IMG/VR virus record: IMGVR_UViG_3300011444_000012
Location: 1-58,060 of that record
DNA from: a virus
Lineage: Duplodnaviria; Caudoviricetes
Strand: one strand, 5' to 3'
DNA length: 58,060 nt
Shown: one piece after another, positions 24,246-58,060 of the stretch
Layout of the letters: each line of letters begins with the position of its first letter
Position numbering within the stretch: position 1 is the stretch's first letter
The notes under the pieces: generated by a model
Told to the model about the DNA's origin: nothing
The model's input: the letters and a program-made list of their open reading frames with translations, nothing else
Databases searched by the model: none
Made by a program: the position numbers and the translations under genes

Positions 24246-24275
24246 GTCCGGTTCTTTCCAGAATCGGACTTTTTT
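24246..24275 (+). terminator. Intrinsic terminator ending the glyco/GroES operon
   Basis: GTCCGGTTCT-TTCC-AGAATCGGAC plus U6. Confidence 0.8.
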
Positions 24276-24289
24276 GTTTCAAAAAATGT

Positions 24290-24317
24290 TACATTTACAT
24301 TCAAAACCAATTCTAAC
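24290..24317 (+). promoter_or_regulatory. Putative late promoter/leader motif TACATTTACATTCAAAACCAATTCTAAC
   Basis: Near-identical copy at 45993-46021. Confidence 0.65.
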
Positions 24318-24321
24318 TAAC

Positions 24322-34112: not shown

Positions 34113-34114
34113 TT

Positions 34115-40609: not shown

Positions 40610-40950
40610 GTGAAGACAGAGTAAAACAACTTGAAGCCAAAGTAGCTGAATACGAAAAGCGTATGGGGATAAATCAGAATGATCCTGCAAAGGATGGTTA
40701 TTTGGTATTGGTAGGGATGTTGCGCCAACAGAATGAATACTTAGGTGAATTTAGAATAAAATCTAAGATAGCATCAGATGATAAAGGAGACCAGATAGCC
40801 TACAAAAACGCAAAAGACTTGTGGGAGAACTTACCAAAGATGATTGAGAATGTAAGCAATTTGAAGATTGCTTTGAAAATGGAAGGCGAAGAAAAGAAAA
40901 GTATTTATAAACCAATTTCATCAAAAGAAATAGCTAACGGTAGTGTTTAA
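40606..40950 (+). CDS. Possible terminase small subunit
   Basis: Small helical ORF overlapping the large-terminase start; positional call only. Confidence 0.35.
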   Translation: MSEDRVKQLEAKVAEYEKRMGINQNDPAKDGYLVLVGMLRQQNEYLGEFRIKSKIASDDKGDQIAYKNAKDLWENLPKMIENVSNLKIALKMEGEEKKSIYKPISSKEIANGSV

Positions 40951-43072
40951 AGATTTAGGTAATGGATATATTGATGTGCCGGATAATGCCTTTGGGTTTA
41001 TCTACAAATGCTATTTGCCGCCTGTTGGGTTTGGGTTAAATGCTGCTAATGGTGTATTGCAGGAAACAGATATATTGCTTTCATCTGAAATTCCTACCGA
41101 ACAATTATGGGAACGACCATCATTGCCAAGTGATTTTAAATCAAGAAGGAAAAAAGAGAAAGACGTACAGGCTATAGACCCTTATTATGTTGACCCATAT
41201 TTGGAAGAAATTAGAAAACGTGAATGGAGAAGAAGGCTATGCGGTGTATGGTTTTGGAATTATAATCCTATCAAGCAACATAGCGAATTAATCTACATAA
41301 CAGGGCTTAACTACTTATATATAACATACTGGAAGTTTCAGGGTAAGTTTTTGGACTTTCGTATGGCAGATAGAGACTTCTTTTATTTCGTAGCCTACTG
41401 CATGGAAGATGATAAATGTTTAGGCGTAAATGAAATAACGAAGCGTAAGAACGGGAAGACGGCAAGGGCAGGTTGTTGGAGTTACGAAAGAGTATCAAGG
41501 ATGAATAACCATCATGCAGGATTACAATCTAAAAGTGATGATGATGCAGAAGAAGCTTTTTTTAAGGCAATCATAAACCCCTGGTCAAAATTACCTGATT
41601 TCTTTCGCCCAAGATATGATTTAATGAAAGGCGAAGAACCAAATGAATTAAGATTCTTTGCCACAGCGAGAAGGGGTAGCAAAGTAGAGGAAGATGATAG
41701 TAGTATTGAAGAACCATTAGAAAGTTTTTTTGATTTTAAGCCTTCAACAGAAGCGGCTTTTGACGGCCCAGAATTGCATTCTTACGTTTCAGATGAAGCG
41801 GGCAAAACCAAAAAACCTGTTTCAATTAAAGAACGTCAAAATGTAACAAGGTATTGTACTGAAATAGATTTCGAATTAAAGGGGAAGCATTATTATACCA
41901 CAACGGTAGAGCCGGAAAAAAACGAAGAAGAAAATTACGAGTTTCAAGAACTTACGGCAAACAGCAACCCACTTGAAAGAGATGAAAACGGGTTTACTGG
42001 AACAGGTCTTTATACTATATTCTTACCTGCACAAAAGGGGATGTATATTAATAAGGATTACGCCAAGTATGGCTTTGCGGATGAAGGCATGAATCTGCAT
42101 ACTATTAATAATAAAATAGCTGCACTAAAAGAAAAGAACGATACAAGAGGCATAAGTTCATTCAAAAGAAAAAACCCTACAACTTTAAAAGAAGCATTTT
42201 CGGCAGACGGCGAGTATTCCCTATACAATCCAGAGCTATTGAATAATCAATTAGATGCAATACAATGGACTACCAAGTTTACTGAATTTGGGAATTTAGA
42301 ATGGGAGAAAGGGGATAGAATGTTTATTGAAGAAACAGCATCGGATGGCACAATAACTATAAAGCCAAACAAATTAAGATGGGTAGCAAGCGCAACGGGG
42401 AAGATAGAAAAGGTGATTAATTGGATGCCAAGAGAAGCCAATAAGGTTTATTACCACGCAGGCGGCTTTCACCCAAATAATAATATGTCTTTAAGGATGG
42501 GATGCGATCCATTCAAATACGATAAAACAAAAGATAAAAGGCGGTCTAATTGCGCAGGGTATGTGTATCAATTACCAGATGATATTTATCCCGATCCTAT
42601 CTATGATGATGCCTTTGTTTTAAGGTATGCATATAGAGAAGAAAGCACAAGGGCAGCTAATGAAGATATTTTAAAAATAGCATGGTGGTGTGGTTGCCAA
42701 GTGTTGTTTGAAAGGAACGTAAATCATTGGAAGAATGATTTCATAGATTGGAATTGTGCTGCATTTTTAATGTGGTTACCAAATGAAGTAGAACCTGGAA
42801 TCATAACATCAACCGGAAGTAATGGAGTGCAGTCTATATGCAACTATACAGAAGCATACATAAATGAATTTGTGCATAAGGTTTACTTCAAAACATTACT
42901 AAGAAAAGAAACGGGATGGCTAGGATTTAAAGTAGAAGATACAGAAAAGTTTGATGAACCAATGGCGGCAGGCATAACACTAATCAATGTACGTGGCGTA
43001 AAAAGAATGCCAAAGACACCAATAAGAGATATTAAAGATTATTTCCCTAATTCAAAAGCATGGGCAGTATGA
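40943..43072 (+). CDS. Terminase large subunit
   Basis: ITG.NY.Y, KRKNGKT Walker A, VSDEAGK Walker B, GCDPF nuclease, ERN. Confidence 0.9.
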   Translation: MFKDLGNGYIDVPDNAFGFIYKCYLPPVGFGLNAANGVLQETDILLSSEIPTEQLWERPSLPSDFKSRRKKEKDVQAIDPYYVDPYLEEIRKREWRRRLCGVWFWNYNPIKQHSELIYITGLNYLYITYWKFQGKFLDFRMADRDFFYFVAYCMEDDKCLGVNEITKRKNGKTARAGCWSYERVSRMNNHHAGLQSKSDDDAEEAFFKAIINPWSKLPDFFRPRYDLMKGEEPNELRFFATARRGSKVEEDDSSIEEPLESFFDFKPSTEAAFDGPELHSYVSDEAGKTKKPVSIKERQNVTRYCTEIDFELKGKHYYTTTVEPEKNEEENYEFQELTANSNPLERDENGFTGTGLYTIFLPAQKGMYINKDYAKYGFADEGMNLHTINNKIAALKEKNDTRGISSFKRKNPTTLKEAFSADGEYSLYNPELLNNQLDAIQWTTKFTEFGNLEWEKGDRMFIEETASDGTITIKPNKLRWVASATGKIEKVINWMPREANKVYYHAGGFHPNNNMSLRMGCDPFKYDKTKDKRRSNCAGYVYQLPDDIYPDPIYDDAFVLRYAYREESTRAANEDILKIAWWCGCQVLFERNVNHWKNDFIDWNCAAFLMWLPNEVEPGIITSTGSNGVQSICNYTEAYINEFVHKVYFKTLLRKETGWLGFKVEDTEKFDEPMAAGITLINVRGVKRMPKTPIRDIKDYFPNSKAWAV

Positions 43073-43671: not shown

Positions 43672-45945
43672 ATGGAAACCAATTATCCTTATCCAGACGA
43701 TAATATAGACCCCCGCAAAAAGACTTTTGATTGGATTATCCAATACATGAAGGCGGCATGGGCAGATAGCCGTAATTACATGCCCAGTGTCATGCAGTTT
43801 ACAAGCAACATAAACCAGATGGCAGAGCGTAAACAGTACGCAATGGGTAAGCAATCCATTACTAAGTATAAACTTGTTCAGGCAGGGGATGAAATAGAAG
43901 ATAATACCGATCTTAATACCGATGGTAGTGTACTTGCTATCATTCCTAAGTTCAGAGAAATAGCTGTATCAAAAGTAATGCAGCGTGAATATTATGTAGA
44001 AGCATTTACGGTTGATCCATTAGCAAAGAGTGAAGAAGATGCATACTTTAATCAGCAGAAAGCTAAGATTATTATGCGTCAAATGGCGCAGGAAGCGGGT
44101 TCTGAATTAGCCAATACGCCCGCACTTAGGCAGCAAAATAAAGAGCCGGAAGATTTAGAGCAACTTCAGATACAAATGGATTTCGGGTATAAGCACGTAA
44201 TGGCAATGCAGGCAGAAGAAGGGGTTCAATTAATATTTGAGCAAAATCAAATGCCGCAAGAAAGAAAGGAAACTATCGAATGTTTATATGATTGGGGTAT
44301 CGGCGGGTATAAAGCATGGATTGACGAAAATGGTATGGTTAAATTCAGGGCGGTAAGCGGGGAGTATGTAATAACTTCTTATTGCCAAAAAAGCGATTAT
44401 TCAGATGCAGTACATATAGGGGAAGTAATCTTTGTTTCAGTAGCAGATTTAGCCCCATATTTTAGCGATGGGCAAAGGGAGCAAATAGCAAGGAATGTGG
44501 CAGGCAGATATGGCAACCCTAACGTGTTTGATATGAAGATTAATCGTTGGTGGGATAGGTTTCAGACAGCCGTTTTAGACCTGCAATTCTTCTCTTACAA
44601 TACGATGGTGTATGAAGAAACAATAGATGGTAGAGGTAATCAAAGATTTGGCAGAACAGAATACAATAACATACAATACATAAGTAGAGATGAAGACATG
44701 AAGGGTGGTGAAGCCTTCCCAAAATACATGAGTACAATGCGTAAAGTAGTGTATAAAGGTAAATGGCTTATCGGTACTGAATTTATGTATGATTATGGAT
44801 TGAAAGAGAATCAAAACAGAAAACTATCTTCATGGTGGGATACTCAATTAGATTATGTATTAGGGTCATGGAGTTTTTATAAGATGCAGTTTTCGGGTAT
44901 AATGGAAAGATTGATACCGCTTGCAGACGCATATCAATTAACATGGAGAAGGTTACAGACATTTAAGAACAAGCTGATACCTTACATGATTGAACTTGAC
45001 CTTACAGCATTGGAAAAGGTAGGGCTAGGGAAAGGCGGTAAGGATATGACACCTCAAAAGATTTTGGATTTCGCTTTTAAGAACTTCGTATTATTGAAAC
45101 GTACTACTTCTGAATTTGGCAACAATCCTAACTACAAAGCAATAGATATTCAACCAACCGGAGAACTATACGCCTTCACTCAATTATATGCAGACCTAGA
45201 TAGGTTGTATTTAATGATACAGCAGATAAGCGGATTGAATGAATTAACCGATGGCAGCACACCTAATGCAAAAACACTTGTACCAGTAGCCAATGCAGCA
45301 GTACAAAGCACCAACAATGCATTATATCTAATAACTGAATGTGAAAAGAGATTAATAGAAAGGCTATCAGATATTATAGTACAGAAAATACAGATAGCAG
45401 TTAAGATAGGTAAGGTAGAAGGGTATGCAAAAGCATTAGGCAGTAGCACCGTTAAATTCTTACAGATAAATCCTGATATAGCATTATGTGAATTAGGTAT
45501 TTTCATAAGAGATATGCCAACAGAAGAACAACGTATGATGTTATTGCAGGAATTGAATATAAAGGACAGCAATGGGCTAATAAATCCGGCAGATAAAATC
45601 ATTGTGCAGTCTATGGTCAACTTGAAGCAAGCAACAATGTATTTAGCCTATGCAGTTAAAAAGAGACAAGAACAACAGCAAGCGCAACAGATAGCGTTAG
45701 TGCAACAACAGGCACAAGCCAATCAAGAGGCAATGATGGCGGCAGAGCAAGCCAAGCAATCAACCATGATTTTACAACATAAGTTCGTAATGGAAGAAAT
45801 TGCAGCAAAAGGGCAATGGGAATATGTAACGCAAATGGGCAAAAAAGAAGGTGATCTGGAATCGGCAAAAACGCAGAGTTCGGCAAAGATAATTTCTGCA
45901 CAGATAGCAGCGCAAGCAAAACAGGTTGCAACGGCAATAGGGTAA
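43672..45945 (+). CDS. Portal protein
   Basis: 757 aa; YAMGKQSITKYK, IIPKF, A.TVDP, SGLNE.TDGSTP; Q-rich C-terminus; position after terminase. Confidence 0.85.
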   Translation: METNYPYPDDNIDPRKKTFDWIIQYMKAAWADSRNYMPSVMQFTSNINQMAERKQYAMGKQSITKYKLVQAGDEIEDNTDLNTDGSVLAIIPKFREIAVSKVMQREYYVEAFTVDPLAKSEEDAYFNQQKAKIIMRQMAQEAGSELANTPALRQQNKEPEDLEQLQIQMDFGYKHVMAMQAEEGVQLIFEQNQMPQERKETIECLYDWGIGGYKAWIDENGMVKFRAVSGEYVITSYCQKSDYSDAVHIGEVIFVSVADLAPYFSDGQREQIARNVAGRYGNPNVFDMKINRWWDRFQTAVLDLQFFSYNTMVYEETIDGRGNQRFGRTEYNNIQYISRDEDMKGGEAFPKYMSTMRKVVYKGKWLIGTEFMYDYGLKENQNRKLSSWWDTQLDYVLGSWSFYKMQFSGIMERLIPLADAYQLTWRRLQTFKNKLIPYMIELDLTALEKVGLGKGGKDMTPQKILDFAFKNFVLLKRTTSEFGNNPNYKAIDIQPTGELYAFTQLYADLDRLYLMIQQISGLNELTDGSTPNAKTLVPVANAAVQSTNNALYLITECEKRLIERLSDIIVQKIQIAVKIGKVEGYAKALGSSTVKFLQINPDIALCELGIFIRDMPTEEQRMMLLQELNIKDSNGLINPADKIIVQSMVNLKQATMYLAYAVKKRQEQQQAQQIALVQQQAQANQEAMMAAEQAKQSTMILQHKFVMEEIAAKGQWEYVTQMGKKEGDLESAKTQSSAKIISAQIAAQAKQVATAIG

Positions 45946-45992
45946 GAATATTACATATTGCCTCAAAAATATTTGGTAAAAGGAAAATTCGC

Positions 45993-46021
45993 TATATTTA
46001 CATTCGTAAACCAATTCTAAC
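45993..46021 (+). promoter_or_regulatory. Putative late promoter/leader motif TATATTTACATTCGTAAACCAATTCTAAC
   Basis: Copy of the 24290-24317 motif; TTTG at 45972-45975. Confidence 0.65.
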
Positions 46022-46026
46022 AGCAG

Positions 46027-47166
46027 ATGTCCGATTTGAAAATTAACGGTTCTGGAACATTATCAGATGCATTAGCGAGAGATGCAGTAGCAATTCAAGA
46101 AACACTTGCTCCACAAACAGAAGTTCCAGTAGAGACAGCAACAGAAAATACCACAGATATTTCAGTTAATCAAAACGGTGAATTGCAACAAACAGATGCA
46201 ACCATTACTGAAGCTGTTGCAGAAACTAAAGAGCCGGAAGAACAAATTTTCGATTTCGATTCACCGCTATTTAAAGATTCTGAAAAGACAGAGCCGGATG
46301 CCGCCACACAAACACCTTCCGCAATAACATGGCAGGATGCACTTAAAACAGTTGACAGAAAAGAATTGCTCAAATATTTAGATATTGATGATTTCGCTAT
46401 CGAAATGAACGAGCATATCAAAAAAGGCGGCGCACCAGTAGATTATCTAAACGCAAAAGCAGTAGATTGGAACAGCGTACCAGATACAGATTTAATTATA
46501 GGGGAAATGAAAAAAGAGTTCCCCGATGCAACACCAACACAGTTACAAAGGTTATTCAATAAGAAATATAGCCAAACAGATTTATCGGATGATGATGATA
46601 AAGATGATGGCTTGCTTTTAATGAAAAGCGATGCAAGGAAATTACGTGCAACAAAGGTGAGTGAACAGAGTAATTTCAAGATTGCCGAACCAAAACAAGT
46701 TCAGCAAGCAGCGCAACCGGAAATTTCAAAAGAACAATTAGAAAAAAGGGAAAGATTTAATAAGATATTTCAAGAACATGAGGCGACAAAACACCTAATT
46801 AACAATAAGAGAGTTACGGTTAATTTAGGGGAAGGGTTAAAACCTTTCAGTTATAATGTTGACCCACAGGAAGTATTCAATATTATGTACGACCCCGAAC
46901 ACAACGCAAAATACGGTTTGACGAAGACGGGAGAGCCAGATGTTCAACAAACCTTAGAAGCAGTTCTATTTCGCATGAATCCGGCTAAGTTCAAACAGGA
47001 CTTAATCAATTATGGGAAAAGCTTGGGCGAAAAAAAAGTAGTTGAAGAAGGGCAGAATATCCAAAAGCCTGGACAGCAAACACGCCCACTTACTACCACA
47101 ACCGATTTAAAGACTTTGTTCCAAACAAATGCAAAGACAGGGACATTGGCGGGCAAATTAGGTTAG
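46027..47166 (+). CDS. Putative capsid scaffolding protein
   Basis: Acidic disordered N-terminus; lies between portal and capsid. Confidence 0.7.
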   Translation: MSDLKINGSGTLSDALARDAVAIQETLAPQTEVPVETATENTTDISVNQNGELQQTDATITEAVAETKEPEEQIFDFDSPLFKDSEKTEPDAATQTPSAITWQDALKTVDRKELLKYLDIDDFAIEMNEHIKKGGAPVDYLNAKAVDWNSVPDTDLIIGEMKKEFPDATPTQLQRLFNKKYSQTDLSDDDDKDDGLLLMKSDARKLRATKVSEQSNFKIAEPKQVQQAAQPEISKEQLEKRERFNKIFQEHEATKHLINNKRVTVNLGEGLKPFSYNVDPQEVFNIMYDPEHNAKYGLTKTGEPDVQQTLEAVLFRMNPAKFKQDLINYGKSLGEKKVVEEGQNIQKPGQQTRPLTTTTDLKTLFQTNAKTGTLAGKLG

Positions 47167-47213
47167 GGTATTTTTTAAGGTACAATTTTATTTATTTTTT
47201 AAACCAACTAACA

Positions 47214-48560
47214 ATGGCATCTCTTAGCTATATCAACAAATCGTATGTGTCCGCACTTGATCCAGTTCTCGATACAAGGGAAATTAACAGGAAAGTAGCC
47301 GATCTTTACAACGAAAACGGGCTTACCAAAATATTAGGCGTAGGCGACCGTAAGAAACCTATTACAACGGGGCAACCTTTATACCGCACATTCGTAAACG
47401 AAAGTCTTTTCAAGAAACTTGATACCACAGGCGCAAGCGTAGGTACTAACACTACCCCAACTATCACAACACAGGCTACAGCAGCAACAAGCGGTTACAC
47501 ACAACCTGGAGACTTGGTGATATTCCCTACAAAGAATATTATCGGTTATGTATATGCTGTAACAACAACTTCCGGCATTGATGCTCTTACTATCAAATCT
47601 GTATCCGGCGCAAATATAGCTACTACCGCAGGCGACCAGTTGGGGCTTATCTCAATGGCATACGGTGAAAGAGCAGGCGCACCACAGAACGTAAGGTATG
47701 GCGTAACAAGTTACTTTAACAAGTATCAGATTTTTCAGATTACTTGCCAAATAACTGACGTTCAGAAAGCCGCAACGGTAGAAGTAGAATTTAATGGCAA
47801 CAACAAATGGGCTGTAAAAGACCAGATTGATAAAGCATTAAAATTGCAAGGTGCTGTAAACGCTATGTTCATTGCAGGTGATATGTCTGTAACATCATTT
47901 AGCGATACTAACCCTGTTTTGACTGACCAAAACCTGCCATCAGACGGCGGCGGCGGCGGGCCAGTTCAGACCACAAGAGGGGTGAACAAGTACATTGAGC
48001 TATATGGTACTACTTTGAATCCTGGTAACGTTTCCTTCGGTGCTATTGACGATGCGCAAGATAATTTACTTGCAAGCCGTTCACCAAAAGAGCAGTTGAT
48101 TATGTGTTCATCTAAAGTTCGTAGGGCTTATGACACATTCCTTAAAAACTTGGGTTCAGCAGGAGTACAATCTGTTCGTTTAGTAGTTGATGGCAAAGAA
48201 GTAAACTTCGAAGTTGACAAATGCGAATACGGCGGATTCATAATGAACTTCGCTACGATGCCAATATTCGATCATCCGGTTATGTTCTCTTATACCAATA
48301 TTGTTAAGAGTGCTTTCTGGGTGCCTTATAACGAACAAGTTCCTATTTATGGTGGTGGTTATGATCCAGCAATGCAGGTTCGCTACATACCAAATCCTGA
48401 AACTTACGGTACAGATATGATTGGTGAAAGCCATTCAGGTACATTATCTCCTATCAATCCTAATGGACACATTCAGGAATGGAAGACCGTGTACGCTACA
48501 CGTCAAGGGTTTGAATTTATAGCACCACAGTTTGCATTACGCCAACAGGTAATAGCTTAA
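47214..48560 (+). CDS. Major capsid protein
   Basis: 448 aa; N.YQIF, TTRGV..YI; followed by a terminator; position after scaffold. Confidence 0.8.
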   Translation: MASLSYINKSYVSALDPVLDTREINRKVADLYNENGLTKILGVGDRKKPITTGQPLYRTFVNESLFKKLDTTGASVGTNTTPTITTQATAATSGYTQPGDLVIFPTKNIIGYVYAVTTTSGIDALTIKSVSGANIATTAGDQLGLISMAYGERAGAPQNVRYGVTSYFNKYQIFQITCQITDVQKAATVEVEFNGNNKWAVKDQIDKALKLQGAVNAMFIAGDMSVTSFSDTNPVLTDQNLPSDGGGGGPVQTTRGVNKYIELYGTTLNPGNVSFGAIDDAQDNLLASRSPKEQLIMCSSKVRRAYDTFLKNLGSAGVQSVRLVVDGKEVNFEVDKCEYGGFIMNFATMPIFDHPVMFSYTNIVKSAFWVPYNEQVPIYGGGYDPAMQVRYIPNPETYGTDMIGESHSGTLSPINPNGHIQEWKTVYATRQGFEFIAPQFALRQQVIA

Positions 48561-48569
48561 AGCTTTTTA

Positions 48570-48597
48570 AAGGGGGGCATACAGTCCCCCTTGCTTT
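48570..48597 (+). terminator. Terminator after the capsid gene
   Basis: AAGGGGG...CCCCCTT plus T-rich tail. Confidence 0.65.
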
Positions 48598-48615
48598 ATA
48601 TAAATTATATATTTT

Positions 48616-49350
48616 ATGCAGCGTCTTAAAAACTTCAACAACATTTCCGATAAACTGTATAACAGCATTCCTAAGTTAAAACAAGGGGAAATAAAAGTGT
48701 TTCATATGCTTAATGGCATAGCAAACCCTGATCCTGATATTGACGAAAGAATGAAACGCCCCGTACTATACGGCGCAGTACAGTTACGTACATGGGCAAG
48801 GATAAGAGACCCATTTATCAAGAATGAAAAAGGGGATGAAGTTGGTGGTTATGTGGACATTGGATTGGTTAAGGACTTCGACACAACAACAGAACGTCCT
48901 TCAAGCTTTAAAACAGTTGTGGTTGGAAAAGTAGCTTCTGAAAGGGGTGCAGGATATTTTACATTGAATGGGGATAGGATAGAGGATGCTGAATTGTATG
49001 AGATACTTTATTTAAGCCCAGAAAACAAGCGTAACAATACCACCGGAGATGCTTTGTTTGAAGAAGTAGAAGCCATAGATGAAAATGAAACAGTAGCCAC
49101 CGATTTAGGGTTGCTTTCATCTGCATTAGAAATATATAATTCTTTCAATTACGATGATTTGGAAAGGACAGCATCTATATTAAAGATTGATGCTTCTTTA
49201 GGTGCTAAAGCGTTAAAGACAGAAATAGGCAAGGTGATAAAAGCCGATCCTAAGAAGTTCTTGGCTATTGCATCTGAAATAAACAGCCGGAAAAAGAATC
49301 AAGGGAAAGCAAAAAATATAAAGCAAGAAGCGGTTTTGGAAGGAAGCTAA
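48616..49350 (+). CDS. Hypothetical protein following the capsid gene
   Basis: 244-aa ORF. Confidence 0.7.
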   Translation: MQRLKNFNNISDKLYNSIPKLKQGEIKVFHMLNGIANPDPDIDERMKRPVLYGAVQLRTWARIRDPFIKNEKGDEVGGYVDIGLVKDFDTTTERPSSFKTVVVGKVASERGAGYFTLNGDRIEDAELYEILYLSPENKRNNTTGDALFEEVEAIDENETVATDLGLLSSALEIYNSFNYDDLERTASILKIDASLGAKALKTEIGKVIKADPKKFLAIASEINSRKKNQGKAKNIKQEAVLEGS

Positions 49351-49407
49351 TACTTATTGTGGCGGGGGATGCTTTTAAAATTATTTGTTCATTTTTAAAA
49401 ATCTCTA

Positions 49408-49950
49408 ATGCCATTTACAGCATCGTTCACCATTAGCCAAACTATTGCTGGATCAACATTTACCATAACAGATATTTCAAATTATGGGGATGAAGCAAAG
49501 AACACATTTACTGCAAGAAGATTGTATATCTATTTGTGGAATGGTTCTACGTATAACGCTTCTGGTACAATAGATACTACTCCAACATACATTGATTTTT
49601 CATTTGCAAGCTATCCATCAGATGTAATTACTATTCCTATTTCAAGAGACTATGCTTTCATAGTTACTCTCTCATTAATTACTTCAAACCCAATATCAGG
49701 GAGTACGTATAGTGCTACCGAGTATGTGGGTTTTTTGTTTTATCTAAAGCAATTCAAATACCAGTTAATGCAGTATGCGGCTGCACAAAGAGGGCTATTC
49801 TCTAATGTCAACTTTTTTGGCAGTACACAGAAGCTAAATGTTGATATAAAAGGTGCTGAAAGCGCAATAGAAAATTCGGATGTATGGAACGCACAGAAGA
49901 TGATTGATGAAGGATATAAGTTGATGAATAACCCCGTTAATTTCTACTAA
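49408..49950 (+). CDS. Putative structural protein (no signal peptide)
   Basis: Beta-rich N-terminus with helical C-terminus. Confidence 0.6.
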   Translation: MPFTASFTISQTIAGSTFTITDISNYGDEAKNTFTARRLYIYLWNGSTYNASGTIDTTPTYIDFSFASYPSDVITIPISRDYAFIVTLSLITSNPISGSTYSATEYVGFLFYLKQFKYQLMQYAAAQRGLFSNVNFFGSTQKLNVDIKGAESAIENSDVWNAQKMIDEGYKLMNNPVNFY

Positions 49951-50801
49951 TGCCAAATGCAAATAATATATTGGAATGGATTGAGATAGGTAAAGTGTGT
50001 ACTTATTTAGCGGCATCCGATGTTAAGAAGCAAACTTTTTTAGGCACTAACGTAATGGATAAGTTGCAAGCCGAAAAAATATACTTAGTAAATGATTCTG
50101 TTGAATGGGGTTATACCTATGATAATAACACAGCAGCACTTGATTTAGTTAATGATTACCAGATAGCCTTATGTGGTAAATATACAGCCGCAGCAAGAGC
50201 TATTATTAGCGGAAGTTCAGGCGGTAGTACGGTGGTGGTAATTGGCGATGGCAATACTTGTTATACTGTTGCATGGAATAAGGTACAATTAGTAATTGGT
50301 GATCCAGCAGCAGCAATACCAACAGGTTTCACAACGCCAAATGCAGGTGATAATACTGTTATTATTCCTTACGGGGTAATGCCTAATTCAGAAACAATTT
50401 TCTATCAAGGGATTTTCGTTAAGAAGAATCCAAGTGATGATTTTAATTATACGCCTTTTTATAATGGCACGACAGATACCACTTACGTATTTAGCCAGGT
50501 ATTCGAAGATGGCTTTAGTCTTGAATTTAATATAGCTCAAATACTAAGTGTAGGTAATTGTGGTGGCGGTTCGGCTACTGGTGGTACGGGGTTATTGTCA
50601 GTAGTATTTACAGTAACAGCAGATGGCAACACTATAACAGTACCACAACTTGCTAACGGGGCGGTATTTGTTTTAGCTATTAAGGGGATGCAGCCATTAG
50701 ATACAACCTACGTTACACAGACAGATGATGTACTTGATTTTAGTGCAGTAGGTGGGGTAACATTAAACGAAAACATTACAATATTATATCTTCCAGCATG
50801 A
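49950..50801 (+). CDS. Putative structural/fibre-anchoring protein (no signal peptide)
   Basis: Helical N-terminus, Gly linkers, two beta-rich domains. Confidence 0.6.
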   Translation: MPNANNILEWIEIGKVCTYLAASDVKKQTFLGTNVMDKLQAEKIYLVNDSVEWGYTYDNNTAALDLVNDYQIALCGKYTAAARAIISGSSGGSTVVVIGDGNTCYTVAWNKVQLVIGDPAAAIPTGFTTPNAGDNTVIIPYGVMPNSETIFYQGIFVKKNPSDDFNYTPFYNGTTDTTYVFSQVFEDGFSLEFNIAQILSVGNCGGGSATGGTGLLSVVFTVTADGNTITVPQLANGAVFVLAIKGMQPLDTTYVTQTDDVLDFSAVGGVTLNENITILYLPA

Positions 50802-51835
50802 GTAGAGTAATTGCAATCATATTATTTTGTGTGTGTGCTGCAAGTGCAAATGCGCAAAATAAAACTCTTATAAACCCACCAACTTCAGGCAAGAATACCA
50901 TCAATCACTATGCAGATGGGTTATTTGCCGATAGTGTTCAGTTCTTCCCAACTGGTTCTGGTTACCCATCCATCAACATGGCTAATTATATGTCTAAAGT
51001 AAGTTTAGGCGCATTACAGTATGATGTTGCAAATCATATTTGGTGGAGTTTTGACCCATCCACAGGTTTATGGGATACGCTATCAAGTAGCGGGGGTGGT
51101 GGCGGGGGTGGTGAAACAATTCTTCCGGCTGGGCCTTTTGTAACATCAAATGTCGGTATAGGGTATGATCCAGGCACTAACCTAACAGCAGCCGAAATTA
51201 TTCAAAAAGTTTGGTATGGCACAAGACCATCAGCGACATTAACAGGTGGAACTACTATTGAATTAACAAGTGCTTCAACGGTAAGTCAAACATTAAATTG
51301 GGGGGCTACAAGGCAAGTAGGGGCAACAACATTAGCAACTATTGTAGTTGCGGGAGTATCGCAATCTTTTTCACAACCAGTAGCAGGGGGAACGGTTTCG
51401 GGAACACAAGCCGTAAGCGTTCCTGCAAATATATCAACAACGTACAGCAATGTAGTTACTGCTTCGGATGCGCAGACAATAACGGCAACAACCACATTTA
51501 ATTTTCAGAATAAAATTTATGCAGGGTTTGTTACATCTACTTCACCAACGAGCGCAGATATACTTGCGGCAACAAGCAGCACGTATGTTGGCGGTAGGTT
51601 TTCTACATCAAAAAATCAATCGGGATCATTAACAACACCTAGCGGGGCTAAGTATGTAATGTTTGCTAACCCTGTAAGTTTTGGGATACCAAATGTTGTT
51701 ATTAATGGGCTTGGAGTTATTTATACGATTTCGATACTTTCTTTTACTAACGCAAGCGGGTACACAAGCAACTATTATGTTGCTATAAGCCCATTTGTTA
51801 CATCGGGGGCTATTGATAGTTATGTGGTAAATTAA
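50798..51835 (+). CDS. Secreted fibre/adhesin-like protein
   Basis: Signal peptide MSRVIAIILFCVCAASANA-Q; Gly linker; T/S-rich beta domains. Confidence 0.75.
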   Translation: MSRVIAIILFCVCAASANAQNKTLINPPTSGKNTINHYADGLFADSVQFFPTGSGYPSINMANYMSKVSLGALQYDVANHIWWSFDPSTGLWDTLSSSGGGGGGGETILPAGPFVTSNVGIGYDPGTNLTAAEIIQKVWYGTRPSATLTGGTTIELTSASTVSQTLNWGATRQVGATTLATIVVAGVSQSFSQPVAGGTVSGTQAVSVPANISTTYSNVVTASDAQTITATTTFNFQNKIYAGFVTSTSPTSADILAATSSTYVGGRFSTSKNQSGSLTTPSGAKYVMFANPVSFGIPNVVINGLGVIYTISILSFTNASGYTSNYYVAISPFVTSGAIDSYVVN

Positions 51836-51842
51836 ATATTAT

Positions 51843-52943
51843 ATGCGTAAGGTATTAATCATATTATTTCTTCTTGTTTCCTTAGTTGGCTTTTCGCAAA
51901 CTAAGATAACTGCACCACTTGTTCGAAATTTTCCAACAGATACAACTTATTGGATGGTGCAAGATAGTTTGCTGAAGGGCGGCTATATGGTTTTTACGCA
52001 TATTACAAACAGAAATGCTTTACCAAATTCGCAAAGAAGAATAGGATTGTTATGCTTTGTAACAGATAGCTCGGTTTTCTATCAATTACGTGGTGGGATA
52101 GACAATGGTAATTGGTTGCAAGTTTTGGATAGTACAGGCGGCGGCGGTAGTGGCACAGTAAACTTTGCAAATCAGGGTACTTCTCTTAGCGGCGATACTG
52201 TTCAGTTAGGGGGTTCTTTATATAAAAATGCAACCATAACAACAGATGATTTTGGCTTGTCACTTTCTTCTTCATCAATAGGTATCCCATTACAATCTTC
52301 AAGTGCAGGCAACATTGCTTTTGCGGCAACAACACAAACAGGGGCTTATGCGGGTTCATTCTACACTAATCCGGTTGCAGCCAATACGGTTGCGCCAATA
52401 CTAAGATTATATAACACAGGTACAGGAGTAGGGGCTAATGGCATAGGGGGTAGTTTAGATTTCGCATTGCAAGCCACAAGCGGCAACGTAGTTTCAAACC
52501 AATTAATAAGCAGTCTAACAACCGCTACTGCATTATCTGAAACATCTACATTTTCAATTAAAGGGGTAAGCGCAGGCACAGCATCAACACTACTCACATT
52601 AAATGGCGATGGCGGGTTACAACTTAATAAATATACAACAGGGGCTTTTCTTGGTACACCAGATTATATATTAGGAACAGATGCAAGTGGTAATGTAATC
52701 CAATCATCAGTACCAACAGCAAACATCATATTGGATAGTGTAGTAATAGTGTTCGATGGATTAAGTTCAGAGACAACATTTGCATTAACACGTCCAAACA
52801 CAGGGTTTAAGAATTTAGAAATAGCAGCAGAAGAAAGTGATGCAGGGGGATTTGCACAAAGCTTTAATCAAGCAGAAGGCATATTAGATTGGCAAGTAGC
52901 AATAAAGGGTTCGAAGAAATTTTACATCACTTATTATTATTAG
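51843..52943 (+). CDS. Secreted fibre-like protein
   Basis: Signal peptide MRKVLIILFLLVSLVGFS-Q; RNALP..RR.G..V...YQL.GGIDN.NW module; LGTDASGNV. Confidence 0.75.
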   Translation: MRKVLIILFLLVSLVGFSQTKITAPLVRNFPTDTTYWMVQDSLLKGGYMVFTHITNRNALPNSQRRIGLLCFVTDSSVFYQLRGGIDNGNWLQVLDSTGGGGSGTVNFANQGTSLSGDTVQLGGSLYKNATITTDDFGLSLSSSSIGIPLQSSSAGNIAFAATTQTGAYAGSFYTNPVAANTVAPILRLYNTGTGVGANGIGGSLDFALQATSGNVVSNQLISSLTTATALSETSTFSIKGVSAGTASTLLTLNGDGGLQLNKYTTGAFLGTPDYILGTDASGNVIQSSVPTANIILDSVVIVFDGLSSETTFALTRPNTGFKNLEIAAEESDAGGFAQSFNQAEGILDWQVAIKGSKKFYITYYY

Positions 52944-52954
52944 GGAATGAATAT

Positions 52955-55900
52955 ATGGTAACCCCAAAAAAGATTTTTATTTTATTATGTTCTTTGATTT
53001 GTTTTATTAAAGCATCGGCACAATTACCGCTTGATACGGCTGCCTATAACCATACTATAATTGTAGTTCAGAATAAACATTATATCACAAGTTGGGGGCA
53101 ATTTGGAAATTTTGATACAAGTATAGTTCAGGCGGGTACAAATTTGGGCGGGGCATATATTAAAAAGCAAGGCACAGCACAACAGCACAAGGTATTAATC
53201 AATGAAGGTGGAATGTTTACTATGAATGGTGTTGAAATTGATGATTGCGCATATTTGGATTTTATAGGGTTGGGTAGTGCAGATGCATACGGCATTAAAA
53301 TGAATGCACAGAACAATGGGGTAGGGATACCGATAAATGGGAAATGTCATGATCTGCAATTCATAGGAATAAATATAGATGGCGGCTTTTCACAAGGGAT
53401 TACCGCTAAGATTGAGGCTAATGATTTTGCAAGTAAATATTTATGTGATACAAGCTATGCATATTTTGTTCAAAGAAGAATTAGAATAAGTAATTGTAAG
53501 GTGAGAAACAACGGTAACGAAAGCGTATATGTTAATAGTACAGGGTGGTTTTCCCGTGATAGAGTAACGGGGAATGCGCCTTTTTTGGGATGCCCTTTAG
53601 GTAACACTAATGTTTTTGATGGGCAAAACAGGGCAGATACAATTACCAATTCAGGGACAGTAACCAATAAAGCATATTTAGACCCCGCAATAGCAGACCC
53701 CGCTAAAATAACTGTATGGTCTGGTGTTATAGCAAGGATTTCAGGAACAATAAGCGGGAACATTGTATTATCCGGTTCAAACAATGGCACTACCTATACC
53801 CAATTACAAACACAGCCTTTAACTAATGTAGCAAGCAATACCTATACATTTAATCTATCCACAAGAAGCAATAATTACTTTAAGATAGATGTGGTAACAA
53901 GTGGTACTATGTCTGCTACATTAAAGAGCTATGTTAGTTTCAACTATTTCCCACCTGTAAGTGATTCTATATTTATAGATAGTAACGTGTTTATAAACCC
54001 AAGACGAAGTGCAGTAAATTTTAGTAATATGTCTCATGGGTTTTATAGAGGGAATAAAGGATGGCATTTAGGTGGAGAATTAAATGGGGCGCAAGGCAAA
54101 ATGTTGGCAGCAGGCGGCAAATTGGGTTACTTAGGAGATACCACTTATGTTTCAGGCAATAAATGTTTTGGTTCATGGAACAATAATTTCTGGTTTGTGG
54201 CAGAAGGGTACATTGTATTTGAAAACAACTATGGGGATAGTTCAGGGTATTGGGGTACAACCAAAAACCCCGATCCGACACCAAGCACAGTATTTGGTGT
54301 AAGCGTTGGCAGAACAGTACCTACTACATGGAGAATATGCAATAATGCATTTTATTTTAATACAGCTTCACCATCTACGCAATATTCATTAAATCCAGGC
54401 GCACAGAATACAACCGCTAACGTAGTTGGGGGCAATACTGGCAATGTTGATATAAAAGGTACACTTGTGTATTCTAATAATTGTGGTGCAGTTGCCAATC
54501 AGCCACCAATAGTAAACGCAGGTAACAATGCAACCATTACTTTACCAACAAATTCTTATCAATTACAAGGAAGCGGTAGTGATCCTGACGGCACGATAGT
54601 AACAGTTGTTTGGACGCAGGTAAGTGGTGGAAGTTATACGATAGATAATGCTAACATATTTACACCAACTGTAAGCAATCTTACAGCAGGCACGTATGTT
54701 TTTAAGCTAACCGTTACAGATAACATAGGAGCAAGTGCATCAAAAAATGTTACTATAACTGTTTTGCCCGCACCTAACCAACAGCCGAATGTATCGGCAG
54801 GCGGGACAGTAGTTATAACGTTACCAACAAATTCTTATGCGTTTACTTCAGCGACAGCAAGCGACCCTGACGGTTCAATAGTTTCTTATTTGTGGACGCA
54901 AGTAAGTGGCAGTTCCTATACAATAGATAACGCTGCCATACTTCATGCTACTGTATCAAATCTCCTTGTTGGCACGTATGTTTTTAAACTTACTGTTACA
55001 GACAACGGCGGGTTAAGCAATTCAGACAACATTACTATAACTGTAAATGCCGCACCAAATCAACCACCAGTTGTAAATGCAGGTAATAATGTAACAATAA
55101 CACTACCTACTAATCTCTATACAATAGCGGATGCCACAGCAAGCGATCCGGACGGAACAATAGTATCTTACGTGTGGTCTAAAACCGCAGGTGGTACTTA
55201 TACTATAAATGACGCTACAATATTAAATCCAACAGTTTCAAATCTAGTAGCAGGGGTATATACATTCAAATTGGTGGTTACTGATAACAACGGGGCAACG
55301 GCTACAAGCAACATGAAGATTACAGTAAACAATCAACCAAATATACCACCAAATGTAAATGCAGGCAAAGACACAACATTGATTCTTCCGACTACATCTT
55401 ATCAAACAGTAGCGACAGCAACAGACGCAGATGGAACGGTAACAACATACCAATGGTTGCAGATAAGTGGAACTACCGTAACTATAAGCAATGCTTCAAG
55501 TCTTTTGCCGCTTATATCAAACTTTGTTGTTGGTACTTTCGGGTTTAGCTTAACAGTAGGGGATAATTTGGGTGCTACCGCAAAAGATACAATATTTATT
55601 ACTGTTAATCCGGCAGCGAATAAAACACCTTCAGTAAATGCAGGTGGGACAGCAGTAATAACATTACCAGTTAATTCATATCAGGTTACAGCCAATGCAA
55701 GTGATACGGATGGAACTATAATAGCATACGCGTGGACGCAGGTAAGTGGGGGTGCTTATACTATATCAAATGCTTCTGTTCTCAATCCTTTATTCACAAA
55801 TCTATTGCAAGGAACGTATGTGTTTAAGTTGACTGTAACAGATAACGTAGGGGCAAGCAATTCTGATAACTTAACAATCATAGTAAACCATGCATTGAAT

Positions 55901-57067
55901 ATACCGCCTTCAGCTAATGCGGGAAGTGATAGAACAATAACGTTACCTACCAATAGTGTACAGATAAGTGGTACAAGCGCAACAGACCCCGATGGCAATG
56001 TAGTATCGGTTGCATGGACACAAGCAAGCGGCGGTTCTTATACCATAAATGATGCAACTATTTTAAATCCATTATTCTCAAACTTAACGCAAGGCACTTA
56101 TAGATTCGCATTAACGGCAACAGACGATAGCGCACAAGTAGGTAGAGATACCATGAACATAATAGTTAATCATGCCTTGAATTTACCACCTGTTGTAAGC
56201 GCAGGTAACGATACAGCGATAACACAACCTGCAACAACAATAAACTTAATAGGGACAGCAACAGACCCCGATGGCAATATAGTTTCAAGTCTTTGGGAAA
56301 ATACGGATGGATGCGTTATCAATACTGCATCTTCTTTAATTACTACTGCAACTTGCGCCACAACAGGCACACATCTATTTACATTAACAGCAACAGATGA
56401 TTCAAGTATAAGTAGTATTGATTTTAAAATTGCAATAGTAAATCCAGCAGCCAATGTACCACCAGTAGCAATAGCAAGTAATGACACAACCATATATCTT
56501 CCTTTGGATTCGGTTATATTAACGCAATCAGGTACAGATGCAGATGGAACTATTGTAGGGTATTTAACCACTATCTACCAAAGTAAATATGCACCAGTTG
56601 TTGCAAGAGAAACAACAACAAGCCCCGCAATAAAAGGATTGCAAGCAGGGGATACAATAAGAGTGCTATTAAGAGTGCAAGATGATGATGGCATTTTTGC
56701 TTACGATACAACTAACATATATGTACTTGCTGATACCGTAAATCATCCACCAGTAATTGTAATAGATTCTAATATCAATGTAAGAATGCCTGTTCAATTC
56801 CTAAGCATTGATGCAAGTCAATCTTATGATCCCGATCCAGGGGATGTAATAGTTTCTTATAGATGGGTGCAGACCGAAGGTGATACTTCAATAGATATTA
56901 GTGGTGAAAATGGTTCTATAATGACGTTATCAAACTTGCCACAAGGTTTTTACACATGGATACTTACGGTAACAGATAATAGAGGTGCGGATAGTCAAGC
57001 AACAGTTAATGTAGTGGTATTGGCATCGGTAAGGGTTAAAGCAATTAAGGCAAAAAAGAGATCATAA
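52955..57067 (+). CDS. Secreted beta-helix protein with nine PKD/Ig-like repeats (start revised to 52955)
   Basis: Signal peptide MVTPKKIFILLCSLICFIKASA-Q; repeats N.PP.VNAG...ITLP...SD.DG.I..Y.WTQVSG...GTYVFKLTVTD. Confidence 0.85.
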   Translation: MVTPKKIFILLCSLICFIKASAQLPLDTAAYNHTIIVVQNKHYITSWGQFGNFDTSIVQAGTNLGGAYIKKQGTAQQHKVLINEGGMFTMNGVEIDDCAYLDFIGLGSADAYGIKMNAQNNGVGIPINGKCHDLQFIGINIDGGFSQGITAKIEANDFASKYLCDTSYAYFVQRRIRISNCKVRNNGNESVYVNSTGWFSRDRVTGNAPFLGCPLGNTNVFDGQNRADTITNSGTVTNKAYLDPAIADPAKITVWSGVIARISGTISGNIVLSGSNNGTTYTQLQTQPLTNVASNTYTFNLSTRSNNYFKIDVVTSGTMSATLKSYVSFNYFPPVSDSIFIDSNVFINPRRSAVNFSNMSHGFYRGNKGWHLGGELNGAQGKMLAAGGKLGYLGDTTYVSGNKCFGSWNNNFWFVAEGYIVFENNYGDSSGYWGTTKNPDPTPSTVFGVSVGRTVPTTWRICNNAFYFNTASPSTQYSLNPGAQNTTANVVGGNTGNVDIKGTLVYSNNCGAVANQPPIVNAGNNATITLPTNSYQLQGSGSDPDGTIVTVVWTQVSGGSYTIDNANIFTPTVSNLTAGTYVFKLTVTDNIGASASKNVTITVLPAPNQQPNVSAGGTVVITLPTNSYAFTSATASDPDGSIVSYLWTQVSGSSYTIDNAAILHATVSNLLVGTYVFKLTVTDNGGLSNSDNITITVNAAPNQPPVVNAGNNVTITLPTNLYTIADATASDPDGTIVSYVWSKTAGGTYTINDATILNPTVSNLVAGVYTFKLVVTDNNGATATSNMKITVNNQPNIPPNVNAGKDTTLILPTTSYQTVATATDADGTVTTYQWLQISGTTVTISNASSLLPLISNFVVGTFGFSLTVGDNLGATAKDTIFITVNPAANKTPSVNAGGTAVITLPVNSYQVTANASDTDGTIIAYAWTQVSGGAYTISNASVLNPLFTNLLQGTYVFKLTVTDNVGASNSDNLTIIVNHALNIPPSANAGSDRTITLPTNSVQISGTSATDPDGNVVSVAWTQASGGSYTINDATILNPLFSNLTQGTYRFALTATDDSAQVGRDTMNIIVNHALNLPPVVSAGNDTAITQPATTINLIGTATDPDGNIVSSLWENTDGCVINTASSLITTATCATTGTHLFTLTATDDSSISSIDFKIAIVNPAANVPPVAIASNDTTIYLPLDSVILTQSGTDADGTIVGYLTTIYQSKYAPVVARETTTSPAIKGLQAGDTIRVLLRVQDDDGIFAYDTTNIYVLADTVNHPPVIVIDSNINVRMPVQFLSIDASQSYDPDPGDVIVSYRWVQTEGDTSIDISGENGSIMTLSNLPQGFYTWILTVTDNRGADSQATVNVVVLASVRVKAIKAKKRS
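54497..57025 (+). repeat. Nine tandem ~93-aa PKD/Ig-like coding repeats
   Basis: Units start NQPP, NQQP, NQPP, NIPP, NKTP, NIPP, NLPP, NVPP, NHPP. Confidence 0.85.
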
Positions 57068-58060
57068 TGAAAAGCATATTATTAATATTATTTCTGGTTC
57101 TATCATCAATCTGCTATTCACAAGTACGGCAAACATTTGGTGCAGTAGCGGATAACTTGGATAGCCTTGTTACTCATGTAGGTAAGCACAATCAATACGT
57201 ACTTGTATTAGGTAGAGACCATGCTTATGATTCTTTAGGAGGTGTTTATGCTTATGATACTGCTTCAACGGCAACAGTAATACCAAATATTATTTTTAAA
57301 GTAACGGGTAAAGATACGGGCAGGTGGAAAGCTGTTTATTTCTTCAATAGTAGTGCAGCAGAAAGATTTGGTATAGAAGATAATACTGGTATTCAGAATA
57401 GAGATATAGATATGGGTAATTTCTCTCTTTCTGCCCATAATGCAAGTGATATAGTATGGCAAAGTGGTAGTGATGCAAACCCAAGTGCAGGATTTGAAAC
57501 AACCATAGACGGGGATGATCCACCAAACCATGCATCAACAATGTATTCATATAATGCAGGCGGCGATGTTACTCAATTAAGAGTTCATTCAGGCAATATT
57601 ACCATTACCAATGATGCAGGTACATACCCTACTCTAACAAATGCGTATCTACCCGTTTCTGTAAATGGGAATTTCGCAGACAATACTGGTAATATAACAG
57701 TAAGTGGTAGTGGTGGTGGGATAGGGGCGGTTTACGCAGGGACAGGATTAACTAAAGATAATGATAGCACGTTAAGCTTAACTATTCCTGTTGCTATAAG
57801 TAGCGGGGGTACAAATAATGCTTCTATTTCAGTAACAAATCAGAATTTAATAATAGCAGATGGCACTAAATTAATAGGGCTTGTAAAAGGCACAAACGGG
57901 CAACATCTTATAGTTAATGGTTCTGGTAATTTAGCATGGGTAGATACAACGGCGGCAGGTGGTGGTGGAACGGTAACAAGTATTGCAACTACTTCACCAA
58001 TAGCAGGCGGTACAATAACTAATACCGGAACTATATCTTTAGATACAACAACAGCAAGCG
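57067..58060 (+). CDS. Secreted tail-fibre-like protein, 3'-truncated by the window
   Basis: Hand-translated MKSILLILFLVLSSICYS-Q...PVAISSGGTN...GTNGQHL...GTVTSIATTSPIAGGTIT; TAATG overlap; open to the window end. Confidence 0.8.
   Translation, partial: MKSILLILFLVLSSICYSQVRQTFGAVADNLDSLVTHVGKHNQYVLVLGRDHAYDSLGGVYAYDTASTATVIPNIIFKVTGKDTGRWKAVYFFNSSAAERFGIEDNTGIQNRDIDMGNFSLSAHNASDIVWQSGSDANPSAGFETTIDGDDPPNHASTMYSYNAGGDVTQLRVHSGNITITNDAGTYPTLTNAYLPVSVNGNFADNTGNITVSGSGGGIGAVYAGTGLTKDNDSTLSLTIPVAISSGGTNNASISVTNQNLIIADGTKLIGLVKGTNGQHLIVNGSGNLAWVDTTAAGGGGTVTSIATTSPIAGGTITNTGTISLDTTTAS

Follow-up and report, generated by a model that had tools for sequence, protein, structure and literature searches.

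The window analysed here is the full 58,060-base virus record IMGVR_UViG_3300011444_000012, and its last genes are four consecutive open reading frames (ORFs), g50798, g51843, ORF3 and g57067 (Table 1), whose products very probably leave the cytoplasm through the Sec pathway. We read them as four Sec precursors (an Ig-like adhesin, a trimeric fibre, a β-helix/PKD protein and a truncated Ser/Thr/Gly-rich protein, respectively), and we lean, with modest confidence, towards the view that all four would mature in the periplasm and then dock. The source is an incomplete 58-kb genome of an uncultured short-tailed phage with a Bacteroidota host. The record has no terminal repeat, and joining its end to its start leads to immediate stops instead of extending the last ORF; on both counts it is a genome fragment, and g57067 is incomplete. 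Its portal is 23-26% identical to the portals of Flavobacterium, Cellulophaga, Tenacibaculum and Maribacter podophages, and a tblastn search with it matched 87 GenBank phage records, all at <60% identity (Flavobacterium 68, Cellulophaga 15, Tenacibaculum 2, Maribacter 1 and unnamed 1), which makes the phage a distant relative of Flavobacteriia podophages. The host phylum follows from these portal relatives together with the Q-rule leaders described below.

An initial annotation of this DNA had placed the four genes in one tightly packed run behind the capsid genes, each opening with a Sec-type signal and a predicted mature Gln (ANA-Q, GFS-Q, ASA-Q and CYS-Q). We confirmed the coordinates of the run at the end of the capsid/late block, and found the signals in 4/4 ORFs by a hydrophobicity and charge rule and conserved in relatives. 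The first gene overlaps its upstream neighbour by 4 bases, and is followed by gaps of 7 and 11 bases and then by a 1-base overlap. For ORF3, the start was taken as the ATG at 52955, as in 7/7 homologues; the ORF listing extends to a TTG at 52889. The predicted leaders of g50798, g51843, ORF3 and g57067 are MSRVIAIILFCVCAASANA, MRKVLIILFLLVSLVGFS, MVTPKKIFILLCSLICFIKASA and MKSILLILFLVLSSICYS, each followed by Q. Each N-terminus combines 1-2 basic residues with a hydrophobic stretch of ~12 residues that is free of charges, has small side chains at positions -3 and -1 and places Gln at +1, in keeping with the tripartite Sec signal (basic n-region, uncharged h-region of about 10-15 residues, polar c-region). 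Their mean Kyte-Doolittle values over 10 N-terminal residues (3.19-3.53) are the highest among the 37 ORFs of at least 150 amino acids (aa), the next-best being 2.59 (32056-32637, an internal transmembrane-like stretch) and then 1.88. A leader followed by Gln is thus present in 4/4 consecutive ORFs and in 0/33 of the other ORFs in this size class.

The leader is kept in 45 of the 53 homologues of g50798, in the whole ORF3 family (7/7) and in all five close homologues of g51843, and the eight leaderless relatives of g50798 include visibly truncated or over-extended gene calls. Among leader-bearing proteins, a small residue followed by Gln is found in 45/45 members of the g50798 family, 63/64 of a wider g51843 set, 7/7 of the ORF3 family and 5/5 of the close g51843 homologues, whereas windows shifted by 40, 80 or 120 aa gave the same pattern in just 5, 3 and 12 of 45 (g50798 family) and in 12-15 of 64 (g51843 set). 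The residues behind the Gln are hypervariable even though the leader is retained (~100 residues in the g50798 family). With Gln fixed while the sequence behind it varies, the proteins would only make sense as signal peptidase I substrates.

This pattern has been described for cellular proteins. In Bacteroidetes, most substrates of signal peptidase I are left with an N-terminal Gln after the cut (PMC5837995), and the exposed Gln is cyclised by a membrane-associated glutaminyl cyclase (PMC10653852). Our four proteins resemble such Q-rule substrates in the n-h-c leader, the Gln at +1 and the presumed pyroglutamate cap, which stabilises extracytoplasmic proteins; unlike the described substrates, they are encoded by late genes of a tailed phage and have fibre and depolymerase architecture (PMC5837995, PMC10653852). 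Full-text literature searches found no description of exported tailed-phage fibres, the nearest case being the Q-rule genes of Porphyromonas gingivalis prophages (PMC10367356). These are also phage-borne and are read as an adaptation to host secretion, but in the excerpts available they are five function-unassigned genes of temperate phages, interpreted as modifiers of the host outer membrane and given no link to fibres or glycosylation.

Leaders of this kind could in principle stay uncleaved and act as membrane anchors or assembly handles, leaving the proteins on the cytoplasmic side. Phage lysis proteins do use uncleaved signal-anchor-release domains, and cleavage here is predicted from sequence only. 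We regard this explanation as scarcely credible, because the Gln behind small -3/-1 residues is nearly invariant when set against the shifted windows, and because the periplasm-specific excess of glycosylation sequons, to which we now turn, would be left without an explanation.

The second body of evidence concerns the Bacteroidota O-glycosylation sequon D-[ST]-[AILMVT]. Hand counts in the initial annotation (2, 5, 14 and 6 in the four ORFs in gene order; 0 in the portal, 0 in the terminase and 5 in the 1295-aa tail protein) proved exact. Shuffling each protein 2000 times with its composition preserved gave expectations of 0.99, 1.54, 7.35 and 2.08 (P = 0.26, 0.017, 0.0125 and 0.016, respectively), so composition accounts for about half of the counts and not for all of them. 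Taken together, the four ORFs contain 27 sequons against 11.8 expected (a ratio of 2.28), while the other 33 ORFs contain 28 against 31.8 (0.88).

The g51843 family includes members with and without a leader. We took the best 150 of 1026 HMMER hits (E ≤ 0.001), of which the 149 besides P0004 (P0061-P0209) comprise 64 proteins with a leader (63 with Gln) and 85 without. The motif test used 145 representatives (four with non-Met starts were dropped), with the first 30 residues of every protein excluded. The 64 leader-bearing proteins hold 517 sequons against 268.8 expected (1.92×), and the 81 leaderless proteins hold 284 against 348.3 (0.82×). Per-protein ratios have medians of 2.16 and 0.78, respectively (Mann-Whitney p = 1.7e-10), to be read with the caveat that the sequences are related to one another. 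When the first 130 residues were removed, the counts were 364 against 233.8 with a leader and 250 against 301.6 without. Amino-acid composition is near-identical between the two groups, and control motifs behave alike with and without a leader (E[ST]X 0.69/0.80, N[ST]X 1.10/1.15, reversed motif 0.81/0.87, G[ST]X 1.17/1.19, and no gap for D[AG]X either). The motif D[ST] followed by any other residue is low in the leader-bearing group (0.65 vs 0.80 in the leaderless one). We considered composition as the source of the excess and rejected it on the shuffles and on the near-identical composition of the two groups; the fibre fold was likewise rejected, since leaderless homologues stand at 0.82. These sequence comparisons tie the excess to the glycosylation motif itself and, within this one fibre family, to the proteins with a leader; it would mark the compartment independently of the leader.

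Similar ratios were obtained elsewhere. The g50798 family stands at 2.30, and the ORF3 homologues have 9-16 sequons each against 4.3-7.7 expected. For leader-bearing versus other ORFs in the related loci described below, the ratios are 3.18/0.84 (G001), 2.41/1.50 (L010), 1.98/0.94 (L013) and 2.35/0.99 (L014).

According to the excerpts of PMC12871550, D-[ST]-[AILMVT] is enriched in noncytoplasmic Bacteroidota proteins, occupancy of its sites is close to complete, motifs introduced by engineering acquire glycans too, and glycosylation works across species, on which grounds any exported protein with the motif should be glycosylated. Judging from the motif counts, O-glycosylation of our four proteins at these sites is likely. 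They share with substrates of general O-glycosylation (PMC12871550, PMC8550257) a motif frequency of about twice chance and, as we infer here, a noncytoplasmic location; they differ in being phage proteins known from sequence alone, and the word 'phage' is absent from the available text of the 2025 review (PMC12871550).

The initial annotation had proposed that fibre-like proteins are exported to the periplasm for glycosylation and then either join virions or decorate the infected cell. The export part is strongly supported by the conservation of leader and Gln, and the sequon excess proved leader-specific, but decoration fared less well. Leaders, Ig-like and PKD domains and an excess of sequons are common traits of surface proteins in Bacteroidota, and would fit host-derived cargo genes for adhesins displayed on the infected or lysogenic cell. 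Two routes to the Bacteroidota surface are known, namely the C-terminal domain of the type IX secretion system (T9SS) and the lipobox, whose motif is [LVI][ASTVI][GAS]C. A T9SS C-terminal sorting domain of type A or B was found in 0/9 proteins (NCBIfam, E ≤ 0.01; the four of the window and five large proteins of the G001 module, four of them leader-bearing), and the lipobox is absent before the cut in all four leaders. Because neither route is present, surface display is disfavoured; in related phages, moreover, the genes are late and syntenic and lie in close-set order with structural genes, and no integrase was seen among the window ORFs in general family scans. We therefore consider surface display highly unlikely.

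In g51843, the sequons lie at aa 33, 41, 96, 118 and 298. Copies of its shaft (aa ~100-290), as many as 8 per protein, occur in proteins that reach 2188 aa; the shaft is common to the leader-bearing members and to the many leaderless family members that resemble ordinary phage fibres. The segment aa 48-94 matches aa 20-66 of gp60 of Cellulophaga phage phi12:1, annotated as 'phage tail protein' (34% identity, E = 5e-8), and the N-domain matches the 'structural protein' gp59 of the same phage (pairwise, E = 1e-5); weak PHROG matches include phrog_24134, 'virion structural protein' (E = 3.7e-4). The initial annotation had suggested looking for trimeric fibre folds, and this was modelled for g51843 alone, where residues 96-366 were predicted to form an intertwined homotrimer with ~1076 contacts and an ipSAE of 0.93, compared with 0.00 for the best of three controls. 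The runs share at least 95% of contacts, with a partner predicted local distance difference test (pLDDT) score of at least 86. The mark used for this score was reached by 20/30 solved pairs and by 1/23 single chains, in a calibration with two copies and other alignments. The model supports, and does not prove, that g51843 is an intertwined homotrimeric fibre. That such fibres can fold after Sec export is indicated by the MAT fibres of Bdellovibrio bacteriovorus (PMC10769870), which are tail-fibre-like trimers in which a conserved N-domain comes after a signal peptide. In the excerpts available, these differ from g51843 in being encoded by chromosomal genes of the predator and placed on its own surface or vesicles; they are neither viral nor from Bacteroidota, and show no Q-rule or sequon (PMC10769870).

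The g50798 family has 54 members (53 besides g50798), in which the C-terminal 220 residues are conserved. The AlphaFold2 (AF2) model of g50798 (mean pLDDT 83.5) shows a leader helix, a poorly defined N-domain, the Gly run and two sandwiches; the sequons are at aa 45 and 93. An orthologue occupies the same position in G001 (43% identity). In P0005 and P0061, fibres of the g51843 type begin with an N-domain of the g50798 type (QNKTLINPP…), and on this sequence evidence N-domains are shuffled between fibre families. A profile of the g50798 family had no match in the genome contigs, and a related-locus search with the single protein returned nothing; a smaller alignment of the family returned 8 loci.

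ORF3 has 12 Cys, and its PKD array was recognised by Pfam PF22352 in 9 stretches (E = 4.9e-151); the repeats are too diverged to be detectable as DNA tandem repeats. Q23, D27-T28 and 6 Cys are invariant in the family (7 homologues), and we count the conserved Cys among the markers of a noncytoplasmic compartment. For aa 1-522, AF2 gave a model with a pLDDT of 71.0, which Foldseek matched to GH110, alginate lyase 6kfn, chondroitinase B and RbmB, and to the tailspikes CBA120 TSP4, Depo32, K2-2 and P22 (E 3e-6 to 1e-3, with a query TM-score of at most 0.37). Whereas the 'fibre/adhesin' label of the initial annotation suits g51843, and loosely g50798 with its tandem Ig-like domains, ORF3 is, from its model, better called a polysaccharide lyase/glycosidase-like β-helix protein, that is, depolymerase-like. 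The last protein, g57067, is rich in Ser, Thr and Gly with Gly runs; it has no match in Pfam, PHROG or NCBIfam, and no relative in G001. No tblastn match was found in 50,697 GenBank phage records for g50798, g51843 or the N-terminal part of ORF3, and PDB sequence searches with g51843, the N-terminal part of ORF3 and g57067 returned nothing below E = 0.5.

Runs of leader-bearing genes between tail and lysis genes are present in several other phage lineages. One such run is in G001, a 69-kb relative with a portal 59% identical to that of the window and the same gene order. Its run encodes proteins of 342, ~763, 802, 740, 136 and 890 aa with leader and Gln, among them one leaderless β-helix-like protein of 417 aa, and is followed by small membrane proteins. 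In L010 and L012, found via the g50798 family, 4 or 5 leader-bearing ORFs lie upstream of a lysozyme gene, and one leader-bearing protein of L010 matches 'virion structural protein' PHROGs (E = 1.7e-22). In L013-L015, the leader-bearing ORFs follow tape-measure-sized, 784-aa virion and major-tail-like proteins and precede an endolysin. The records behind L013 and L014 (G003 and G005) are 35 kb long, have direct terminal repeats and are rated 100% complete; no leaderless fibre-like gene was seen after the tail genes in 20 kb of G003 or 15 kb of G005.

Two side observations concern these runs. G001 has an HNH-type endonuclease gene between its first two leader-bearing genes (L001 18120-18641; record 47862-48383), which is not there in the window. 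Lipoprotein-type leaders occur within or just after the leader-bearing runs at L013 13592-14524 (…VVFCGSK) and L010 14808-15332 (…LTGCMS), and these proteins may be spanin-like or lipid-anchored members of the module.

Among cultured phages, the most informative is Cellulophaga phage phi18:3 (Pachyviridae, NC_021794.1), the portal of which is 23% identical to that of the window (E = 1e-32). Just upstream of its membrane proteins and endolysin, gp085, gp086 and gp087 (32891-38583) are three consecutive large proteins with leader and Gln, beginning MKNKITIIMILMSISFGYS, MKKTIYILSILLLTISGVSA and MKHTFSIVLFFILSIGLNA and each continuing with Q (…FGYS/Q, …GVSA/Q and …GLNA/Q). They are annotated as 'virion structural protein', 'structural protein' and 'tail protein', respectively, and the record notes 'experimental MS/MS proteomics analysis' (MS/MS, tandem mass spectrometry). 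The virion proteomics of this phage is reportedly that of Holmfeldt et al. in 2013. No comment on the leaders was found in the record or in the literature. By analogy, phi18:3 plausibly provides the best support for leader-bearing proteins reaching virions.

Other cultured phages have fibre or tail proteins in the same slot between tail and lysis genes, namely gp59/gp60 of phi12:1, which share the N-domain of g51843, and gp45/gp46 of Flavobacterium phage 11b. Unlike the window proteins, these have no leader, with the N-domain at the very start, and the two genomes show no sequon excess (0.94 and 1.01, respectively). No large leader-bearing proteins were found in the Flavobacterium elemo phage, phage 11b or phi12:1, so leader-bearing fibre runs are not universal in Flavobacteriia phages.

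Textbooks have tailed phages assembled wholly in the cytoplasm. In the course that we favour, SecYEG would export each protein and signal peptidase I would cut before Gln, steps of which we are confident. Host glutaminyl cyclase would then cap the N-terminus as pyroglutamate, as the Q-rule suggests, and host general O-glycosylation would probably load glycans onto the D-[ST]-[AILMVT] sites. Once folded, and in part as trimers, the proteins would wait in the periplasm until the holin opens the inner membrane, and only then would they meet the DNA-filled particles built in the cytoplasm; as fibres or other appendages they would dock at that site or once in the lysate, a step that we favour by a small degree. 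Incorporation of the four proteins into virions, argued by analogy, seems to us somewhat the better supposition. It is supported indirectly, through the predicted trimer of g51843, the N-domain shared with phi12:1 and the MS/MS-annotated leader proteins of phi18:3.

The main alternative is that the exported proteins are not virion parts and do their work in the infected cell, in its periplasm or on its envelope. As a depolymerase with binders, they could break down or hide the receptor glycan from within and so spare the progeny from capture by debris; they could also block superinfection, or loosen the envelope for release. The evidence for export (conserved leader and Gln, leader-linked sequon excess) fits such a role equally, the closest folds to ORF3 belong to secreted bacterial polysaccharide lyases and glycosidases and stand beside a PKD array, and g50798 is reminiscent of the Ig tandems of matrix proteins or adhesins, RbmA for example. 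The prophage Q-rule genes are read in the excerpts of PMC10367356 as host-surface modifiers. There is also a leaderless 'short tail fiber' candidate in the window, the 175-aa protein at 31551-32078 (phrog_12032, E = 1.6e-19; phrog_24280, E = 2.2e-9). We nevertheless regard an envelope role as rather unlikely. The N-domain and shaft of g51843 are shared with phage fibres and it is predicted to be an intertwined trimer; leader-bearing runs fill the fibre slot in several lineages, including the 35-kb G003 and G005, both rated complete, where the 20 kb and 15 kb read, respectively, showed no leaderless fibre-like gene behind the tail genes; and the leader-bearing proteins of phi18:3 are annotated as found in virions.

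Several points weigh against incorporation into virions or against the steps that would lead to it. To our knowledge, no mechanism joins periplasmic proteins to tailed-phage particles. The leaders were called by our own Kyte-Doolittle and charge rule plus conservation in relatives, which is crude and involves no trained predictor. From its sequence matches, the 175-aa protein is a possible cytoplasmic receptor binder, and so an alternative to the exported set. For g50798, Foldseek found nothing but generic Ig-like matches (such as T-cell receptor, integrin and RbmA). Ranked by TM-score, the top matches of ORF3 are bacterial lyases that are monomers, and arrays of PKD domains are commonly a mark of enzymes that bacteria secrete. 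With the record breaking off within g57067, the rest of the module and the lysis genes lie outside it. The phi18:3 proteins gp085-gp087 have no BLASTP similarity to the four of the window, and the four rule-flagged ORFs of that phage (first 50 kb, gp085-gp087 included) hold 3 sequons against 9.9 expected, with 1 each in gp085-gp087 against 3.6, 3.1 and 2.9, the opposite of the window proteins. Because these leader-bearing ORFs are sequon-depleted, export and sequon excess do not always go together. The leaderless ORFs of L010 are above chance too (1.50, as given above). Some sequons recur at structurally conserved columns, so the sites are not independent, and fibre homologues with and without a leader may stem from phages whose hosts belong to different phyla. 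The sole labelled homologue, in the g50798 family, is from a Ferruginibacter metagenome-assembled genome.

We hold as tentative the broader proposition that a wide range of Bacteroidota phages, this one among them, make their host-recognition appendages outside the cytoplasm; these would be exported through Sec, capped with pyroglutamate and coated with O-glycans in the periplasm, and attached to completed, DNA-filled particles after the holin opens the inner membrane. If true, receptor-binding parts would have a second assembly compartment and a late docking step, and host-range prediction and fibre swapping in phages of Bacteroidota (gut, aquaculture) would have to consider leaders and glycans. 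Expression in E. coli would yield fibres devoid of the modifications, and annotation rules that equate a signal peptide with a non-virion protein would mislabel such fibres.

The phage also carries a glycan-building cluster of ~8.4 kb (Table 1), which encodes five glycosyltransferases as well as four methyltransferase domains of the FkbM/MT24 type and has an HNH/NUMOD4 homing-endonuclease gene (17321-17914) inserted into it. The same families are present in G001, and are absent from the complete G003 and G005, both of which have leader-bearing fibre runs; we therefore rejected the idea that the cluster is required for leader-bearing fibres. That it might tailor the glycan on the exported proteins is speculation, made conceivable by Bacteroidota O-glycans often being methylated (excerpts of PMC12871550). 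The cluster could equally serve host-surface modification or cytoplasmic glycosylation, and its possible targets include virion proteins, the host surface and DNA. We find it doubtful that periplasmic maturation and rewriting of the appendage glycan by this cluster (15.5-24 kb) occur jointly.

Table 1. Positions and main attributes of the features in the 58,060-base window.
Feature	Position (nt)	Strand	Attributes
g50798	50798-51835	+	345 aa; signal peptide aa 1-19 (nt 50798-50854), cut ANA/Q; variable N-domain aa 20-98, Gly run aa 99-105, two Ig/FnIII-like β-sandwiches aa ~130-345
g51843	51843-52943	+	366 aa; signal peptide aa 1-18 (nt 51843-51896), cut GFS/Q; N-domain aa ~19-95, Gly linker aa 98-103, shaft aa ~100-290, conserved C-terminal domain ending KFYITYYY
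ORF3	52955-57067	+	1370 aa from ATG; signal peptide aa 1-22 (nt 52955-53020), cut ASA/Q; right-handed β-helix with inserted β-sandwich aa ~23-510, nine K319L-like PKD domains aa ~511-1330, short basic tail
g57067	57067-58059, runs to record end 58060	+	at least 331 aa; signal peptide aa 1-18 (nt 57067-57120), cut CYS/Q
Glycan-building cluster	15532-23950	+	GT2, GT11, (HNH insert), FkbM+MT24, MT24, GT8+MT24, FkbM, GT47-like, GT25
175-aa leaderless protein, tail module	31551-32078	+	'short tail fiber protein' / 'tail fiber adhesin' PHROGs
Polyvalent protein	34115-40609		2164 aa; ART-PolyVal ADP-ribosyltransferase domain aa 777-927
Large terminase	40943-43072		phrog_6681, E = 1.4e-46
Portal	43672-45945		phrog_6547, E = 3.3e-60
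Scaffold-like protein			encoded in window
Major capsid protein	47214-48560	+	SU10_MCP (Pfam)
1295-aa virion (tail) protein			encoded in window
283-aa protein	49950-50801	+	no leader; 4-base overlap with g50798; same place in G001

The four leader-bearing genes form the distal end of the head/late block. Directly 3' of the major capsid gene lies a strong, G+C-rich hairpin (48570-48592) with 9 pairs, of which 6 are G-C; from 45.9 to 58 kb, no other site on the + strand looks convincingly like a terminator. A scan for sigma-70 promoters was at chance (40 found vs 40.9 expected), no tRNA genes were found in the window, and a megablast of 43672-58060 gave no match. Minus-strand ORFs of 60-133 aa in the 50.8-58 kb region all lie inside long plus-strand frames. 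The 283-aa protein immediately upstream of g50798 has no Pfam or PHROG family match and is a possible docking or neck partner. The 2164-aa polyvalent protein probably belongs to the internal virion proteins that are ejected; the region matching it in G001 is split, with inserted genes.

Two GroES/Cpn10-like genes were observed at 23947-24216 and 24274-25182, one of which is joined to the C-terminal end of a 302-aa protein; GroES-like genes lie near structural genes in Cellulophaga and Flavobacterium relatives too. In the early region, small ORFs at 3063-3377 (-), 7653-7940 (+) and 2842-3066 (-) encode lipoprotein-like leaders (…LLIGC, …FLAAC) or one membrane helix, and are candidates for superinfection exclusion or a membrane function.

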